In this document: in pieces, positions 5,145 to 31,180 of the stretch
Position numbering within the stretch: position 1 is the first letter of the stretch
Layout of the letters: every line of letters starts with the position of its first letter
Assembly (NCBI GenBank): GCA_016223025.1
Contig: JACRPU010000021.1
Span: forward strand, 14,380 to 78,379
Length of the DNA: 64,000 nucleotides
Reading direction: 5' to 3'
Source of the DNA: Nitrosomonadales bacterium
Lineage (GTDB): Bacteria > Pseudomonadota > Gammaproteobacteria > Burkholderiales > Gallionellaceae
Translations under genes and position numbers: made by a program
Notes under the pieces: generated by a model
Database searches by the model: none
Told to the model about the DNA's origin: nothing
The model's input: only the letters and a program-made list of their open reading frames with translations

Positions 5145-5468
5145 ATGAAAACCCCCATGCCCACAGAAGAGGGCGTCCGCTCCGCCCTGTGCGACGTCAT
5201 AGACCCCGAAGTCGGCATGAATATCGTTGATCTCGGCCTGGTATATGTCGTGGAAATCCGGGACGACATGCTGCGGGTTGATCTCACCATGACTACCCAG
5301 GCTTGCCCGATGTCCGACATGATCCTCAACGACGCGAGGATGGCGCTGGAATCGCTGGCGCCGGACAACGCCAGGATCGAACTCAATCTCGTCTGGGAGC
5401 CACCCTGGACTCCCGCCATGATGACGGCGTGCGCGCGCCGCCATTTCGGCTGGGATGAGCCTGCATGA
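5145..5468 (+). CDS. DUF59 / SufT-like Fe-S assembly domain protein
   Basis: An internal ATG at 5145 gives MKTPMPTEEGVRSALCDVIDPEVGMNIVDLGLVY, the DUF59 signature. The upstream part of the 5025 ORF overlaps the argJ end and looks non-coding. Confidence 0.75.
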   Translation: MKTPMPTEEGVRSALCDVIDPEVGMNIVDLGLVYVVEIRDDMLRVDLTMTTQACPMSDMILNDARMALESLAPDNARIELNLVWEPPWTPAMMTACARRHFGWDEPA

Positions 5469-6579
5469 CAACAATCTCATGAGCGGAAACACGGCCACGC
5501 GACCCGGCGATTTCGGCGTTCCCTTTCGTCTGCCCCTGCTGGTTCTGGGATTCCTCTCGCTGGCGACCGGCGTGGGCGCGGGGTTGTTGCGCATGGGCTG
5601 GGCCGCGCCGTTTCCCCCGGCGGAACTGGCGTTGCTGCATGGGCCGCTGATGTTGTCCGGTTTCCTCGGCACCGTCATCGGGCTGGAGCGCGCCGTCGCC
5701 CTGGGCCGCCGCTGGGCCTATGCGGGGCCGCTGCTGACTGGGGTGGGCGGCATTTGCATCTTGCTGGGATTGCCGCAGGCTGCCGGCGCGACAGCCATCT
5801 CGTGCGGCAGCATCGTGCTGCTTGCCGGTTCGGCGCTGATCGCGCAGCGCCAGCGCGAACTGTTCACGGCTACCCTGGCGCTCGGCGCGGCAAGCTGGCT
5901 GGCGGGCAACCTGCTGTGGCTGTCCGGCTTGCCGGTGGCCGCAGTGGTGGCGCTGTGGATCAACTTTCTGGTGCTGACCATCGCCGGGGAACGCCTGGAA
6001 CTGTCCCGCTTCCTGCCGCCTTCGCCTGTTGCCAGGCGAGTCTTTGTCGCCATTCTGGCAATGTTGCTGGCAGGCGGCGCGCTGATCCTGCTGTCCGCAG
6101 GAACCTGGCTGTATGCTTTCGGGCTGCTCGCCCTCGCGCTGTGGCTGCTGCGCCAGGACATCGCGCGCCGCACCGTGAAAGAGCGGGGGCTGACCCGCTT
6201 CATCGCCGTGTGCCTGCTCTCCGGCTATGCCTGGCTCGCCCTGGGCGGCTTCACCCTGCTTGCCGCCGGCAGCCTGGGCGGCCCGATGTACGATGCGGTG
6301 CTGCACGCCATCCTGATCGGTTTCGTGTTCTCGATGGTGTTCGGCCACGCGCCGGTCATATTTCCTTCGGTGGTGCGGGTCAGGATGCCCTACCACTGGA
6401 CGTTTTACCTGCCGCTGCTGGTGCTGCACGCATCGCTGGCCGCGCGTTTCTGCGGCGGCGCGCTCGATCTGCCGCAGTTGCGCAATCTGGGGGGCTTGCT
6501 GAACGCGGCAGCGCTGGCATTATTCGTTCTGGGCACCATCGCCAGCGTGATCCGGGGGCGTAGCGCAGCAAAAACCTGA
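5455..6579 (+). CDS. Polytopic integral membrane protein, function unknown
   Basis: 374 aa, about 10 or more hydrophobic segments, conserved-looking His residues (LLHGPLMLSGF, FGHAPVIFP). The start overlaps the previous stop. Confidence 0.5.
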   Translation: MSLHDNNLMSGNTATRPGDFGVPFRLPLLVLGFLSLATGVGAGLLRMGWAAPFPPAELALLHGPLMLSGFLGTVIGLERAVALGRRWAYAGPLLTGVGGICILLGLPQAAGATAISCGSIVLLAGSALIAQRQRELFTATLALGAASWLAGNLLWLSGLPVAAVVALWINFLVLTIAGERLELSRFLPPSPVARRVFVAILAMLLAGGALILLSAGTWLYAFGLLALALWLLRQDIARRTVKERGLTRFIAVCLLSGYAWLALGGFTLLAAGSLGGPMYDAVLHAILIGFVFSMVFGHAPVIFPSVVRVRMPYHWTFYLPLLVLHASLAARFCGGALDLPQLRNLGGLLNAAALALFVLGTIASVIRGRSAAKT

Positions 6580-6610: not shown

Positions 6611-7585
6611 TCAGGAAACCTTCCGGTAGTAATGGTTCTGCGGGTGGTTGGCCTCGGCGAAAAAGAACCAGCGCTCGGCCAGCAGCCCCGCATATTGCAA
6701 AATAAACGCGACCGGCAACAGGAAGGGAGCGGTCATTCCGCCAGCGAGCAACGCCAGCGGCACGAAAAATGCCAGGATCAAGAAGGCCGGTTTGATCGCC
6801 CGCATGAAGGCCGTGCTCCTGCCGTGAAAGAATTCGCGCGTGTTGAACGAGCCGCCCATTGCGCCCTGGGCTATCTGCGCGATGCGCGGGTGTTTGATGC
6901 CGATTGCCGTGCGTACGGACGACTTCGGCTTGAGGCGCGCATTGCGCAGCAGCGATGCGGTGCGCCCGGCAAGGGCGAGCAGGGTCAGAATCATCGCCCA
7001 TCCGGCATGGAAGCCCGATAGTTGCGGCGCTGCCAGGGCCGAGAAGGCGGCAGCCAGCACAAAACCGGAAGCGCCGCCGAGCAGGGTATAGTTGATCACC
7101 GTGAGCGGCGTGTGCCATTCCTGCAGAAAGCGCAGGCTGGCATAGACCATCGCCGTGCAGCCAAACAGCGCGAAACCCAGCAGCGTGGCCAGCGCGCCGA
7201 GTATCAGCGTGGGGTCAACGGCGCGCCCGCCGGGCAACTCGAACAGCGGCGCGTGCCAGCAGAACCAGTGCGCGCAGCCATACAGCAGCACCATCCCCAT
7301 GAATGCCGGCAGGGCGATTACCTCGCGCGACAGCCACGAGGCTCGCCACTGCGCGGCGGCGCGCCAGGCTCGTTCGGGGTGGCCGAGGTGAAAGAATGAG
7401 GCGATCAATCCGGCGCAGAGAAATGCCAGGGCGAGTACGCTGCCGGCAGCGTAATAGGAACGGCTGTCCTGCGCGGGCAGGAGATCGAAGAAGGCGTACA
7501 ACTGCCCGGTGTAGAGGGCGAGGAACAGCCCCTGGCCGGCGCCGATCAGGGTGGTGAGAAAGATAACCGAAAAAGCGGGGCGCAT
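6611..7585 (-). CDS. soeC: DmsC-type membrane anchor subunit, read as SoeC
   Basis: 324 aa polytopic protein directly downstream of the Fe-S subunit. Size and position fit the anchor of a three-subunit complex iron-sulfur molybdoenzyme. Confidence 0.6.
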   Translation of the reverse strand: MRPAFSVIFLTTLIGAGQGLFLALYTGQLYAFFDLLPAQDSRSYYAAGSVLALAFLCAGLIASFFHLGHPERAWRAAAQWRASWLSREVIALPAFMGMVLLYGCAHWFCWHAPLFELPGGRAVDPTLILGALATLLGFALFGCTAMVYASLRFLQEWHTPLTVINYTLLGGASGFVLAAAFSALAAPQLSGFHAGWAMILTLLALAGRTASLLRNARLKPKSSVRTAIGIKHPRIAQIAQGAMGGSFNTREFFHGRSTAFMRAIKPAFLILAFFVPLALLAGGMTAPFLLPVAFILQYAGLLAERWFFFAEANHPQNHYYRKVS

Positions 7586-7588
7586 ATT

Positions 7589-8299
7589 TTACCAACTGGT
7601 CACATCGTCGAGCGTGGGTTGCTGCCTGGACGGTTTGGGCAGCTTGCCGTCTATCTTGAGCGGGTTGTCGGCGCGCACCAGTTGATCCTCGTGTATTGTG
7701 ATCGTGGTTTTGCGCCGGGGCAGATAATGGTTGGCGGGTTGCGTGCCCCATTCCGGCATCAGGGTGTAGCCTGACACGACCGAGTCGGGATCGTGTATGT
7801 CGCCGAACAGGCGCGCGCCGGGCGGGCATGCCATCACGCAGGATGGCCTGCGATCCGCTTCGGGCAGGGTTGTGCTGTAAATGCGATCCACGCACAGCGT
7901 GCATTTCTTCATCACCTTCTGCTTCTCGTCCAGTTCGCGCGCGCCGTACGGGCATGCCCAGGAGCAATACTTGCAGCCGATGCACCTGTCGTAATCCACC
8001 AGCACGATGCCGTCTTCCTTGCGCTTGTAGGACGCGCCGGTCGGGCATACCGGCACGCAGGGCGGGTCTTCGCAGTGCAGGCACGACTTGGGGAAATGCA
8101 CCGTTTCGGTTTGCGGAAACTCGCCGACTTCAAAGGTCTGCACCCGGTTGAAGAAGGTGCCCGTCGGGTTGGCGTCGTAGGGGTTGCAATCGCTCAACGG
8201 GCCGGCAGCGCCGGAGGTGTTCCACTCCTTGCAACTGGTCACGCAGGCGCTGCAACCCACGCAGACGTTGAGGTCTATGACCAGGGCGAGTTGAGTCAT
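7589..8299 (-). CDS. soeB: 4Fe-4S ferredoxin-type electron-transfer subunit, read as SoeB
   Basis: 236 aa with several Cys clusters (CVGCSACVTSC, CLHCEDPPCVPVCP, CIGCKYCSWACP, CTLCVDR). Confidence 0.75.
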   Translation of the reverse strand: MTQLALVIDLNVCVGCSACVTSCKEWNTSGAAGPLSDCNPYDANPTGTFFNRVQTFEVGEFPQTETVHFPKSCLHCEDPPCVPVCPTGASYKRKEDGIVLVDYDRCIGCKYCSWACPYGARELDEKQKVMKKCTLCVDRIYSTTLPEADRRPSCVMACPPGARLFGDIHDPDSVVSGYTLMPEWGTQPANHYLPRRKTTITIHEDQLVRADNPLKIDGKLPKPSRQQPTLDDVTSW

Positions 8300-8874
8300 T
8301 TCGAGATCTCCGTCTCTTCTGGTGTTTCCGGGAAATCTGAAAGGCCGTAAATCCCCCCCAGCCCCCCTTTTTCAAAGGGGGGGGCATTCTTGCTTTCCCT
8401 TTTTGCAGAGGAGATATTCTCACTCCCACTCTCTTGCAAAGTTGAGGCATCTTCACTCCCCCCTTTGCAAAAGGGGGGCTGGGGGGGATTTGGTTTTTGA
8501 TTCTGATTTGGATTTACCCGCTCACCAACCACTCGTGCAACCTCGCCCAGCACCGCCTCCAGCTCGCGCAACACCTGCAAATTGTCGAATCGCAAAACCC
8601 GAAGTCCCACTCCTTGCAGATAGCCGTCTCGCACCGCATCTCTTTGTGCATGTTCCTGCTCGAAATGCTGCGAACCATCCAGCTCTATTACCAGCCTGGC
8701 TTTGGGCGCATAAAAATCCACGATATAGCACCCAAGAGGTTTCTGCCGGTAAAACTGCACACCGTGAATTTGCTTGCGCCGCAGCTTCGACCATAGGGTT
8801 TGCTCGGCATCGGTCATGCATTGGCGCAAAGCGCGGGCATGTGTTTTAAGACCACGGTTATATTTCACTATCAC
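8296..8874 (-). CDS. DUF559 (Vsr-like endonuclease fold) protein with a repeat-encoded low-complexity tail
   Basis: ARALRQCMTDAEQTLWSKLRRKQIHGVQFYRQKPLGCYIVDFYAPKARLVIELDGSQH matches the DUF559 pattern. The GTG start overlaps the soeA stop (GTGA) and the stop overlaps the soeB ATG (ATGA). Confidence 0.7.
   Translation of the reverse strand: MIVKYNRGLKTHARALRQCMTDAEQTLWSKLRRKQIHGVQFYRQKPLGCYIVDFYAPKARLVIELDGSQHFEQEHAQRDAVRDGYLQGVGLRVLRFDNLQVLRELEAVLGEVARVVGERVNPNQNQKPNPPQPPFCKGGSEDASTLQESGSENISSAKRESKNAPPFEKGGLGGIYGLSDFPETPEETEISK
8349..8491. repeat. Inverted pair of C/G-tract hairpin repeats
   Basis: AAATCCCCCCCAGCCCCCCTTTTTCAAAGGGGGGGGC at 8349-8385 and its near reverse complement at 8456-8491. 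Both lie inside the DUF559 ORF tail, where they are translated as PPFCKGG / PPFEKGGLGG. Confidence 0.8.
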
Positions 8875-11771
8875 TTCTTGCTCCCCGCAAAATACGCCAG
8901 CCAATCGCCGAGAAATGGCCTGGTTCCGGGATAGGGTTTCATGGGCTCGAATTGCGGCGACGTTTGCTCCGGCTCACCCGGCTTAACCGGGTAGATGCGC
9001 ACACGCACATCGAACCATGCCGCCTGGCCGGTGATGGGGTCGGAATTGGATTGTGTGCCACCGTTGCTTGCGGGCAGCTCTTCCGAGATGACAGGGTTGA
9101 GCAGGAAGCCAAGTTGCGATTCGTTGGCGTTTGGCGCCAGGTTCCATGCGCCGGCGGATTTCCCGATGGCATTCCAGGTCCATACCGTTTCCGGCTCCAC
9201 GGCCTCGGAGTAGCGGCACATGCAGCGCACCTTGCCCCATTGCGATTCGATCCACATCCAGCCGCCATCTGCTATGCCTGCCGCTTTTGCCGTGCCCGGA
9301 TTGACGAACAGGTAATTGTGCGCATGAATCTGCCGCAGCCAGGCGTTCTGCGAATCCCACGAGTGGTACATGGCCATCGGGCGCTGCGTGATGGCGGCAA
9401 GCGGGTACTTGTGCCGGTCGGTCGCCTGGGATTCCAGCGGCTCGTAGTAGAACGGCAAGGGGTCGAAAAAAGTCTCGACACGCTTCCTGAGATGCTCCGG
9501 TGGCTTGCGCGAAATACCCTTGCCTTGCGCCGCGAGGCGGAACGACTGCAACACTTCCGAATAGAGATGGATCTGGATCGGGTCGGCGTAGCGCGTGATG
9601 CGGTTGCGCTGCGACCATTCGAGGTAGCCCTTGTTCCAGTTGCGCATGTACTGGTAGGAAAGCGGCAATTCGTAGTGGTGGATGCAATTGTTGGCGGCAT
9701 ACATCTCCAGTTGGCGCGGGTTGGGCTCGCCACTCAGCGACTTTTCTCCATTCTTGCCGCGCCAGCCGGACAGGAAGCCGATGCCGGAACCGGGCTCGGT
9801 TTCGTAGTTGACGATGAAATCCGGATAGTCGCGGAATTTGCGCGTGCCGTCTTTTTTCACGAAGGCTGGCAGCTTGAGGCGCGAGCCGAGTTCCACCAGC
9901 ACTTCCTGAAACGGTTTGCATTCGCCTTTGGGGGGGAAGATCGGCACGCGTATCGCGTCCACCGGCCCGTCAAATTCTGAGATGGGGCGATCCAGCATGG
10001 ACATGACATCGTAACGTTCGAGGTAGGTGGTGTCGGGCAGGATGAGGTCGGCGAACGACGTCATTTCCGACTCGAAGGCGTCGCACACCACCAGGAACGG
10101 AATCTTGTGTGCGCCCTGCGCATCCTTGTCGTTCAGCATCTTGCGCACCTCCACCGTGTTCATGGTGGAATTCCAGGCCATGTTGGCCATGAAGATGAGC
10201 AGCGTATCTATCGGGTAAGGGTCGCCGCGCCAGGCGTTGGTGATGACGTTGTGCATCAGGCCATGCACCGCCAGCGGGTGCTCCCAGGAGAACGCCTTGT
10301 CTATCCGCACCGGCGAGCCATCCTCGTGTACGAAGAGATCGTCCGGTTCGGCGGGCCAGCCGAGCGGCATGCCGTCGAGCGGCGTGTTCGGCCTGATGGC
10401 CAGCGGCGTGTCGGGCGTCTTTGCGCACGGCGGAATGGGGCGCGGGAACGGCGCCTTGTGCCGGAAACCGCCGGGGCGATCAATGGTGCCAAGCAGCGAC
10501 ATCAGGATCGCCAGCGCGCGGATGGTGTGGAAACCGTTGGAGTGCGCGGCCAGCCCGCGCATCGCGTGAAAAGCCACGGGGTTGCCGGTGACGGTGTCGT
10601 GCTCCTTGCCCCAGGAATCGGTCCAGGAAATTGGCAGCACCACTTTCTGGTCGCGCGCCGTAACGCCCATTTCGTAGGCGAGGCGGTGAATGGTCGCGGC
10701 GGGGATGCCGGTGATTTCCGCAGCCCAATCGGGGGTGTAGTCCCGCACGCGCTCCTGCAACAACTGGAAAGCGGGCTTGACCGGCGTGCCGTCTGCCAGC
10801 TTGAACTCGCCGAACAAATACGGGTCGGCGCCCTCGGCGTGGGTGATCACCGGGCGATCGCTGACACGGTCCCACCACAGTTTGTTTTGCGGGTCGAAGC
10901 AGCCTTCTTCCTTGGGCACTTCGGAGCGCACGAACATGCCGAACTCGTCATGCACCGCATCGAGGTTGACCAGTTCTCCGGCATTGGTATAGCGCGCCAG
11001 GAATTCGCGGTCATACAGGCCCATGGCGATAATCTCGTGGATCAATGCGAGCAGCAGCGCGCCGTCGGTGCCGGGCTTGATCGGCACCCATTCGTCGGCG
11101 ATGGCCGAATAACCGGTGCGCACCGGGTTGATCGAGATGAACTTGCCGCCGTTGCGTTTGAATTTGGCAATGGCGATCTTGAGCGGGTTGGAATGATGAT
11201 CCTCGGCGGTGCCGATCATGATGAACATCCTGGCGCGCTCGAGATCCGGGCCGCCAAATTCCCAGAATGAGCCGCCGATGGTGTAGATCATGCCGGCGGC
11301 CATGTTCACCGAGCAGAAGCCGCCGTGCGCGGCATAGTTGGGTGTGCCGAACTGGCGCGCGAACAGGCCGGTCAGCGCCTGCATCTGGTCGCGCCCGGTG
11401 AACAGCGCAAATTTCTTCGGGTCGGTGGCGCGGATTTTTCCCAGCCGCTCGGCGAGCAGGGCGAATGCCTGCTCCCAACTGATCGCCTCGAAATCGCCCG
11501 CGCCGCGCTCCGCTCCCGGCTTGCGCAGCAGCGGCTGCGCAAGCCGCGCCGGCGAATATTGCTTCATGATGCCGGAGCTGCCCTTCGCGCAGATCACGCC
11601 CTTGTTGAGCGGGTGTGCGGGGTTGCCGTCAATGTAGCGCACCTCGCCATCGCGCAGATGCACGCGGATGCCGCAACGGCACGCGCACATGTAGCACGTG
11701 GTGGTGTACGTTTCGGTTTTTGCGCCCGAAACGGGCTCCGCCAGCGGATCGTGAAGTGGGGTTGATGACAT
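8871..11771 (-). CDS. soeA: Molybdopterin (bis-MGD) oxidoreductase catalytic subunit without Tat signal, read as SoeA (sulfite dehydrogenase, quinone)
   Basis: 966 aa. N-terminal Fe-S motif CYMCACRCG...VICAKG. No twin-arginine leader in the ORF. Followed by Fe-S and anchor subunits and sits in a dsr-containing genome. Confidence 0.7.
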   Translation of the reverse strand: MSSTPLHDPLAEPVSGAKTETYTTTCYMCACRCGIRVHLRDGEVRYIDGNPAHPLNKGVICAKGSSGIMKQYSPARLAQPLLRKPGAERGAGDFEAISWEQAFALLAERLGKIRATDPKKFALFTGRDQMQALTGLFARQFGTPNYAAHGGFCSVNMAAGMIYTIGGSFWEFGGPDLERARMFIMIGTAEDHHSNPLKIAIAKFKRNGGKFISINPVRTGYSAIADEWVPIKPGTDGALLLALIHEIIAMGLYDREFLARYTNAGELVNLDAVHDEFGMFVRSEVPKEEGCFDPQNKLWWDRVSDRPVITHAEGADPYLFGEFKLADGTPVKPAFQLLQERVRDYTPDWAAEITGIPAATIHRLAYEMGVTARDQKVVLPISWTDSWGKEHDTVTGNPVAFHAMRGLAAHSNGFHTIRALAILMSLLGTIDRPGGFRHKAPFPRPIPPCAKTPDTPLAIRPNTPLDGMPLGWPAEPDDLFVHEDGSPVRIDKAFSWEHPLAVHGLMHNVITNAWRGDPYPIDTLLIFMANMAWNSTMNTVEVRKMLNDKDAQGAHKIPFLVVCDAFESEMTSFADLILPDTTYLERYDVMSMLDRPISEFDGPVDAIRVPIFPPKGECKPFQEVLVELGSRLKLPAFVKKDGTRKFRDYPDFIVNYETEPGSGIGFLSGWRGKNGEKSLSGEPNPRQLEMYAANNCIHHYELPLSYQYMRNWNKGYLEWSQRNRITRYADPIQIHLYSEVLQSFRLAAQGKGISRKPPEHLRKRVETFFDPLPFYYEPLESQATDRHKYPLAAITQRPMAMYHSWDSQNAWLRQIHAHNYLFVNPGTAKAAGIADGGWMWIESQWGKVRCMCRYSEAVEPETVWTWNAIGKSAGAWNLAPNANESQLGFLLNPVISEELPASNGGTQSNSDPITGQAAWFDVRVRIYPVKPGEPEQTSPQFEPMKPYPGTRPFLGDWLAYFAGSKK

Positions 11772-31011: not shown

Positions 31012-31180
31012 TAACGGGCATGTCGAGTAGCCACCCCTGATTATGAAACTCGCCATGCCCGTTTCCCTCACCCGTGCGTGGCTGTTGCCGCTTCAGCGGC
31101 TTTACAGCCACGGCCTGCCCCTTGCGGGTGCAACCCTCCCCCGCTGGCGGGAGAGGGGGCAAACGAATCGCTGCGCGAGA
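31012..31180 (-). mobile_element. Family B element, copy 3 with an extra nested hairpin insertion and an altered end
   Basis: TAACGGGCATGTCGAGTAGCCACCCCTGATTATGAAACTCGCCATGCCCGTTTCCCTCACCC, plus an inserted CGTGGCTGT...ACAGCCACG hairpin, then CCCGCTGGCGGGAGAGGGGGC...GCTGCGCGAG. Confidence 0.7.

Follow-up and report, generated by a model that had tools for sequence, protein, structure and literature searches.

A DUF559 nuclease cassette in the soeA/soeB stop/start overlap of a Nitrosomonadales bacterium, with a conserved reading frame bridging the two genes

The closest described parallels to the element reported here are the MIRUs, interspersed repetitive units of mycobacteria (Supply et al. 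1997), which insert at start codons with -4 coupling to the gene that follows (PMC12548453), and the BoxC/PIT/TMECO intrastrand-triplex repeats, which occur as inverted tandem pairs, dispersed over loci that vary between close relatives (Holder et al. 2015, PMC4666352). The BoxC/TMECO copies of E. coli are reported to be always intergenic and to have no associated mobile element or enzyme (PMC4666352), and the paper describing these triplex repeats makes no mention of a nuclease. Further parallels are found in the REP/REPIN-RAYT systems and in the Vsr-like EDxHD homing endonucleases. Here we describe an open reading frame (ORF) with a DUF559 core and a tail of inverted hairpin repeats, which lies between soeA and soeB in a Nitrosomonadales bacterium (GenBank assembly GCA_016223025.1, contig JACRPU010000021.1, positions 14,380-78,379 of the forward strand; this stretch of 64,000 nucleotides (nt) is the window, to which coordinates refer). 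The sequence of the locus gives good support to an insertion whose bridging frame is conserved; activity and mobility are unproven. We consider it probable that the whole is explained by a constrained DUF559 cassette residing in a duplicated ATGA overlap, with its frame kept as a relay that delivers ribosomes to soeB.

The soeA/soeB junction was fetched from 21 related genomes, 22 counting the window's own (G numbers below denote related genomes, L numbers fetched loci and C numbers contigs). A bare ATGA or GTGA overlap joins the two genes in 12 (e.g. ...AAG AAA TGA / ATG ACC CAA); the sequence of the empty junction is AAGAAATGACC. Three genomes have a spacer of 43-59 nt, two have plain REP-like palindromes alone (G022, G013), three have a different DUF559 gene, called type B, flanked by BoxC-like units (G004, G009, G001), and two have a type-A cassette like that of the window (its own genome and G002). 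Because the overlap is bare in 12 of the 21 relatives, the DUF559 cassette is an insertion. The comparison thus defines its boundaries, and the ORF is not a constant feature of orthologous soe operons. The cassette is, from its sequence features, a gene followed by an inverted C-tract/hairpin repeat doublet and then ~50 nt of trailer. Filled and empty junctions together show that it entered the ancestral 4-nt ATGA stop/start overlap exactly, and that this overlap was duplicated. The left copy (GTGA) and the right copy (ATGA) lie 575 nt apart, a spacing of 2 modulo 3 that fits the requirement of a frame bridging both. The features of the locus are as follows, in the direction of transcription.

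8871..11771, minus strand: soeA-like catalytic subunit, 966 amino acids (aa), a molybdopterin oxidoreductase without a twin-arginine leader.
8871..8874, minus strand: GTGA overlap of the soeA stop TGA (8873-8871) with the DUF559 start GTG (8874-8872), the left copy of the ancestral overlap.
8296..8874, minus strand: DUF559 ORF, 579 nt (192 aa and a stop codon), reaching from the stop of soeA to the start of soeB.
8530..8850, minus strand: predicted DUF559/Vsr-like nuclease core, aa 9-115 (Pfam match).
8458..8491, minus strand: repeat unit 1, AAATC7-AG-C6-TTTTGCAAA-G6, translated NPPQPPFCKGG.
8385..8457, minus strand: variable spacer between the repeat units, with a Ser/Glu-rich translation and interspecies length differences in multiples of 3 only.
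8349..8384, minus strand: repeat unit 2, inverted relative to unit 1, C8-TTTGAAAAA-G6-CT-G7-ATTT, translated PPFEKGGLGGI.
8300..8348, minus strand: trailer, 16 codons, containing GGAG (8308-8311).
8296..8299, minus strand: ATGA overlap of the DUF559 stop TGA (8298-8296) with the soeB start ATG (8299-8297), the right copy of the ancestral overlap.
7589..8299, minus strand: soeB-like 4Fe-4S subunit, 236 aa.
6611..7585, minus strand: soeC-like DmsC-type membrane anchor, 324 aa.

A first-pass annotation of the window had placed a DUF559 ORF between soeA and soeB with both of its ends overlapping its neighbours. This is borne out at base level: the GTG at 8874-8872 is in frame with the DUF559 ORF, so the GTGA overlap (8871-8874) is genuine, and the ATGA overlap (8296-8299) is equally exact. 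The annotation had also described the last ~70 codons as an inverted pair of C/G-tract hairpins (8349-8491) rather than protein-like sequence, which holds for 72 codons that are predicted to be disordered. A GGGGAG Shine-Dalgarno sequence (8881-8886) lies within the last soeA codons, 6 nt 5' of the DUF559 GTG, and the GGAG of the trailer lies 8 nt 5' of the soeB ATG. A consensus scan of the coding strand detected neither promoter nor terminator inside the cassette. The Pfam domains along the operon (Molybdopterin/Molybdop_Fe4S4/Molydop_binding, then Fer4_11, then DmsC) give the SoeABC gene order. The N-terminus of the soeA product, MSSTPLHDPLAEPVSGAKTETYTTTCYMCACRCG, lacks an RR motif ahead of its Fe-S cysteines, as expected for a cytoplasmic SoeA, and cluster-mates at least 90% identical to it are named SoeA or 'sulfite dehydrogenase (quinone) subunit SoeA' in IMG and NCBI, a correspondence of names only.

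Type-A DUF559 proteins (77-85% identity) were found by a scan of one genome per species in five further metagenome-assembled genomes (MAGs) from different studies (L026-L030), in every case between soeA and soeB. These carriers are Gallionellales RIFCSPLOWO2_02_FULL_59_110, two Gallionella sp. MAGs, Gallionellaceae X1_MetaBAT.29 (the G002 of the junction survey) and Sulfuricella sp. STA_57. All six carriers are homologous at both junctions and keep the GTG of the GTGA overlap, which is the sole available start in three; a second candidate start (GTG 8868 in the window) is ATG in two carriers and a non-start codon in three. At one locus (L030) the soeA stop has mutated to TGG, and soeA extends by 9 nt to a TGA within ATGTTGA. 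In a tree of the SoeA C-terminus and SoeB the carriers fall into at least three well-supported clades that include empty-site genomes, and among 201 sampled genomes of the family the type-A cassette is found at soe in three. Synonymous divergence (dS) is of the same order in the cassette (0.46-1.9) as in soeA (0.46-1.18), which gives no indication of recent transfer, and recent horizontal homing is unsupported on the same ground. One pair, the window's own genome and G002, is discordant (1.18 vs 0.46); G002 is a lower-quality MAG in which soeA is frameshifted. The distribution fits either a single old insertion with many precise losses after it, or repeated gains that were site-specific.

The core of the ORF is predicted to be a Vsr-like PD-(D/E)XK nuclease domain. 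It matches the Pfam profile PF04480 at E=4.3e-35 and 120.3 bits (cut-off 20.6), with aa 9-115 aligned to profile positions 3-107 of 109, and the NCBIfam DUF559 model at E=1.6e-18; the DUF559 assignment of the first-pass annotation therefore stands in a hidden Markov model search. The residues E24, W28, Q44, D53, F54, E64, D66, G67, H70, D79 and R82, invariant in 20-31 homologues, are all present, and the family core pattern D...ExDG..H...D..R is intact. In the AlphaFold (AF2) model, aa 1-125 have a predicted local distance difference test score (pLDDT) of 84-97, while most of the tail has a pLDDT of ~50 without secondary structure, and aa 121-192 are predicted to be disordered. Foldseek aligns the core to 3HRL (template modelling score, TM, 0.87), to I-Bth0305I (3R3P; 0.62-0.78) and to Vsr (1VSR; 0.51), and by sequence the ORF matches 3HRL at E = 1.4e-20. 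Between carriers the ratio of nonsynonymous to synonymous divergence (dN/dS) of the core is 0.085-0.156 at dS 0.46-1.9, compared with ~0.06-0.19 for soeA; the pooled proportions of synonymous and nonsynonymous differences (pS and pN) are 0.50 and 0.086. A decaying pseudogene or dead remnant is ruled out by a core dN/dS of ~0.1 and the intact set of conserved core positions. These data indicate that the DUF559 ORF is a real, selectively maintained gene, for which nuclease activity is predicted. They also qualify the claim, made when the ORF was first noticed, that it represents a selfish cassette. That it is a cassette is supported by a hairpin-flanked subfamily in other phyla and by its recurrence between hsdM and hsdS. 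Since purifying selection on its core is as strong as that on soeA, over dS 0.46-1.9, the label 'selfish' is not established.

Three layers of constraint can be distinguished within this one ORF: protein-level in the nuclease core, DNA-level in the repeats and frame-only in the linker and trailer. The linker (pN/pS 0.95) and trailer (0.70) are nearly neutral at the protein level. The repeat units have a pS of 0.12-0.15 against 0.50 in the core, so that their synonymous sites are three to four times more conserved than those of the core, and this low pS points to constraint on the nucleic acid. The tails vary in length from 183 to 588 nt, and in each of the six carriers the ORF terminates on the soeB ATGA. 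Every gap in the tail alignment (30, 3, 15, 33, 30, 51, 9 and 33 nt) is divisible by three, and in Gallionellales RIFCSPLOWO2_02_FULL_59_110 (L026:3355-3945) the hairpin units of the tail enclose ~16 tandem copies of a 27-nt repeat (GSEDVSNLE), every one in frame. The translated tail includes the peptides NPPQPPFCK and GGLGGIYGLSDFPETPEETEISK. By shuffling, an open tail is mildly unlikely by itself in the window genome (P = 0.025), with values from ~0 to 0.064 over the six carriers. As the tail frame is open in six of six and its indels come in multiples of three, we infer that selection acts on the frame as such and favours an end on the start codon of soeB. Sequence evidence of a frame preserved while the encoded amino acids drift is rarely this clear, and such a pattern is expected if the frame delivers ribosomes. 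Purifying selection on soeA in all carriers, and on soeB where measurable, together with the constant ATGA end and the indels in multiples of three, indirectly supports the first-pass view that the element settled in the operon without breaking it.

When folded as RNA, the pair of units forms one long hairpin of -87.8 kcal/mol (z = -7.4), and none of 200 shuffles folds as well; the cassette belongs to no known RNA family, the best Rfam matches being at chance level. We propose that the left overlap copy (GTGA), with the old soeB Shine-Dalgarno in the soeA 3' end, would start the nuclease ORF. Ribosomes ending soeA would reinitiate at GTG 8874 via these old soeB signals and read through the cassette, and in passing would melt the hairpin of -88 kcal/mol and cover the C-rich RNA. 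They would then terminate on the right-copy ATGA and reinitiate on soeB, and expression of soeB and soeC would be kept. Translational coupling across the cassette is predicted here from the overlaps and the frame. Tightly coupled subunit genes that overlap by ATGA leave no room for an insertion, yet a 575-nt cassette is present and the operon is intact across several species.

The same arrangement recurs at other coupled junctions. In G077:C33 (L113) and G109:C1 (L114), hsdM and hsdS are separated by a DUF559 gene (61-64% identity) that has a doublet and a trailer on its 3' side; the left junction is TGATG and the right one ATGA. Further ATGA right junctions are found before hsdS in two genomes, between two AcrB-family genes (L037) and at L033 (the set comprises L122, L123, L037 and L033). 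At L034 the cassette frame continues into a downstream methyltransferase gene, prmC-like as judged from its translation. About 20 of the 27 family copies are uncoupled, which makes coupling a feature of the operon-resident copies; survivorship and true ATGA targeting cannot be separated in these data. A DUF559 domain is also found in frame inside hrpA (Helicase_C, HA2, OB_NTP_bind, DUF3418), at L070 (G001:C86:5637-8954) and in ~16 other family genomes, and the hrpA-DUF559 open frames reach 1416-1629 aa in many Gallionellaceae.

At the soe junction of G004 the type-B insert is bridged by several relay ORFs in series: soeA ends in ATGA and is followed by an 18-codon ORF running through the 5' unit, a 5-nt spacer, the type-B DUF559 gene and TAA-ATG at soeB, while in G009 a 33-codon ORF ends on TAG-ATG of soeB. 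In G001, of the same genus as the window genome, the assembly breaks inside the soe insert. One contig there carries the soeA TGA, a doublet and the first part of a type-B ORF with an in-frame TAG (L079, G001:C20:1889-2111; ARN*RREMTDAE), and a second starts with a type-B unit and ...CATAAATGACC; the TAG marks either a pseudogene or an assembly error at the repeat. The palindrome-only junctions, L010 (G022) and L018 (G013), carry REP-like palindromes (GTAGGTCGGGC...GCCCGAC and GTAGGGTGGATAAAGC...) without an ORF, and the frame 5' of soeB stays open through them. Two of the soeA/soeB spacers, of 43-56 nt in L021 (G005) and L019 (G039), contain a relic second 'ATGAC...' start (MTQLVIVK, compared with MTQLALVI for soeB), which may have been left by an insert since lost or by tandem duplication of this junction. 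A long target duplication was rejected at the window's soe junction, where the soeA 3' end aligns to the trailer only weakly and inconsistently (P = 0.02-1.0), and alignment tests for one at the type-B and hsdM/hsdS junctions were negative.

Beyond forming the tail of this DUF559 gene, the pair of hairpins is a dispersed repeat element in its own right. The unit occurs at ~10 further loci in the window genome, in most cases as an inverted doublet with the structure [AAATC6-hairpin]-spacer-[hairpin-G6ATTT], and sites of such solo doublets are found both filled and empty in close relatives. Solo inverted doublets of the window's own genome lie at C48:16528-16631, C55:5803-5895, C74:6786-6839, C81:~5462-5620 and C8:17145-17202. 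Several are in frame within long ORFs (mpl-like, AddA-like and others), and one lies in a prepilin leader directly after ATGAGT. Beyond the family, in Nitrospinota, Geobacteraceae, Omnitrophota, Thermodesulfovibrio and Gammaproteobacteria, DUF559 genes resembling type A are flanked by the window-type unit, with hairpin-G6ATTT preceding the ATG by 4-10 nt and AAATC6-hairpin placed at the stop or beyond it. BoxC-like units of another type lie elsewhere in the window, at 31138, 38335 and 59552 (C2:45517, 52714 and 73931), e.g. CCCCCTTGACGGGGGAGGGCTGGGGTAGGGG. Outside the window, the same genome carries a second DUF559 cassette (C11:21700-22480), type-B-like and flanked by inverted BoxC-like units, between a DUF1016/YhcG-like and a helicase-like gene, named from translations alone. 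This cassette is flanked by a direct duplication of ~55 nt of the ATGAGTAA stop/start junction, and its upstream gene and DUF559 ORF both end in ...DRADE*.

Set against the described systems, the cassette most resembles the MIRUs in its placement: repeat DNA sits in an operon at a start codon, the inserted ORF ends at -4 (ATGA-type) on the downstream gene, and the insertion is proposed to leave coupling, and with it operon expression, in place. A start-codon insert with an internal ORF ending at -4 is found in six of six carriers and also at the hsdM/hsdS and AcrB-family junctions. The sequence family and host group are, however, unrelated to those of the MIRUs. The bridging ORF of the window comprises a 120-aa nuclease domain and hairpin repeats, whereas that of the MIRU is a short peptide; both ends of the cassette are overlapped, and maintenance of its frame is documented across six species. 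The resemblance to BoxC/TMECO lies in the order C-tract, loop, G-tract, N2-3, G-tract, for which the window unit has C6-8, TTTGAAAAA, G6, CT and G7, and the type-B units (G004, G009, C11) closely resemble the E. coli consensus. The window unit itself fails that consensus, CCCTCNCCC N3-6 GGGNGAGGG N3 GGGNGAGGG. Being homopolymeric (C6/G6/G6-7) with an AAAT/ATTT end, it is an analogue of TMECO and not a member, a likeness by sequence architecture alone. Unlike BoxC/TMECO, moreover, the window units are translated, also lie inside genes and accompany a DUF559 gene.

With the REP/REPIN-RAYT systems the locus shares dispersed palindromic repeats, inverted doublets that form one long hairpin, and pairing with a repeat-flanked, low-copy enzyme gene. 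The enzyme is in this case a Vsr-like PD-(D/E)XK protein instead of an HUH/Y1 (IS200/IS605-like) transposase, the repeats at the soe locus lie only 3' of the gene, and the enzyme has no known activity on repeats. Vsr-like EDxHD homing endonucleases such as I-Bth0305I (PDB 3R3P) offer a related fold (TM 0.62-0.78), a single precise site, a patchy distribution and intact empty sites. They differ from the cassette, which has no intron or intein, leaves its host genes separated and uninterrupted, carries repeats, and diverges as deeply as its flanks with no sign of recent homing. The 'endonuclease-like protein' of Neisseria gonorrhoeae (NGO0050, 3HRL) and E. coli YcjD (NF007294) belong to the same DUF559 family, but the function of both is unassigned and neither has been described with a repeat tail or in an operon-junction context. 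A full-text literature search for DUF559 returned no description of a gene-plus-repeat cassette, and the literature searched assigns DUF559 no role in BoxC-like repeat biology, or vice versa.

Several points weigh against the proposed ribosome relay and the mobility assumed with it. The GGAG 8 nt 5' of soeB might let that gene initiate independently, in which case a relay may be unnecessary, and in the window genome alone the tail can be read without stops in a second frame as well. The cassette is old, with a dS similar to that of its flanks, and recent mobility at soe is not supported; its patchiness could stem from many precise losses instead of repeated gains. Only ~4-7 nt are duplicated at the soe junction, and the solo doublets show no clean target-site duplication, their empty sites revealing replacement of a few bases. 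All carriers are, furthermore, metagenome-assembled genomes. The conserved frame, finally, could reflect a functional disordered tail: the tail would be kept as a C-terminal extension of the protein, rather than for delivery of ribosomes to soeB, a reading to which its openness in all six carriers and the conserved Pro/Gly motifs NPPQPPFxKGG and PPFxKGGLGGI lend some weight. These motifs are, however, conserved at synonymous sites too, which implies constraint on the DNA, and the linker and trailer have a pN/pS of 0.7-0.95. A tail of anywhere between 60 and 195 codons, with a 27-nt tandem expansion among its variants, that scores a pLDDT of ~50, whose stop coincides every time with the soeB ATG, and whose counterparts in other phyla end before or shortly after the first unit is improbable as a functional protein extension. 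Still less credible, and in our estimate almost certainly wrong, is that the ORF is a conserved accessory Soe subunit or a dead, untranslated remnant. It is co-oriented with its neighbours, overlaps both and is kept in six species. A subunit is nevertheless rejected by the 12 bare overlaps among 21 related operons, by the presence of the cassette at soe in 3 and its absence there in 198 of 201 family genomes, and by the occurrence of the DUF559 family in unrelated contexts; a remnant is opposed by the dN/dS of ~0.1 and the conserved core positions, all intact.

A further question is whether the DUF559 protein moves the cassette at all. It may instead be a nuclease that is useful to the host or a mere passenger, such as a Vsr-like mismatch or repair enzyme, with the repeats spreading by other means, which we regard as somewhat doubtful but well worth keeping in view. 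Purifying selection on the core as strong as that on soeA over dS ~1 would suit such an enzyme, as would the chromosomal, methylation-linked phenotype of the Caulobacter DUF559 protein VsrA (PMC12907096). The solo doublets, moreover, outnumber the gene by ~10:1, and their empty sites lack a transposase-like target duplication. A host enzyme accounts less well for the pairing of gene and repeat across phyla, where the gene lies between inward-facing G6ATTT / AAATC6 ends, or for the presence at one junction of two DUF559 types, each with its own repeat type. Nor would a repair gene be expected patchily in unrelated operons and in frame within genes such as hrpA. These patterns are consistent with a cassette and repeats that are mobile, and with a candidate enzyme that may move them.

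The ribosome-relay reading, in which the frame of a constrained cassette carries translation from soeA to soeB, takes the MIRU idea into another group of bacteria and to an element that bears a gene, and adds a well-resolved case to a recurring pairing of DUF559 with BoxC-like repeats. ORFs of this kind are prone to mis-annotation as 'DUF559 proteins' of 190-350 aa, and their repeats break assemblies, as where a G001 contig ends in the soe junction. More tentatively, and with the expectation that it may well prove too broad, DUF559 nucleases and C-tract/hairpin (BoxC-like) repeats could make up a widespread two-part selfish system, similar to REPIN-RAYT but driven by a Vsr-type nuclease; its cassettes would enter ATGA overlaps or ORFs preferentially and survive by being translated through, passing ribosomes to the following gene. 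If true, the BoxC/triplex repeats would gain their first candidate enzyme partner, and mobile DNA would have a general route into the operons of multi-subunit enzymes.

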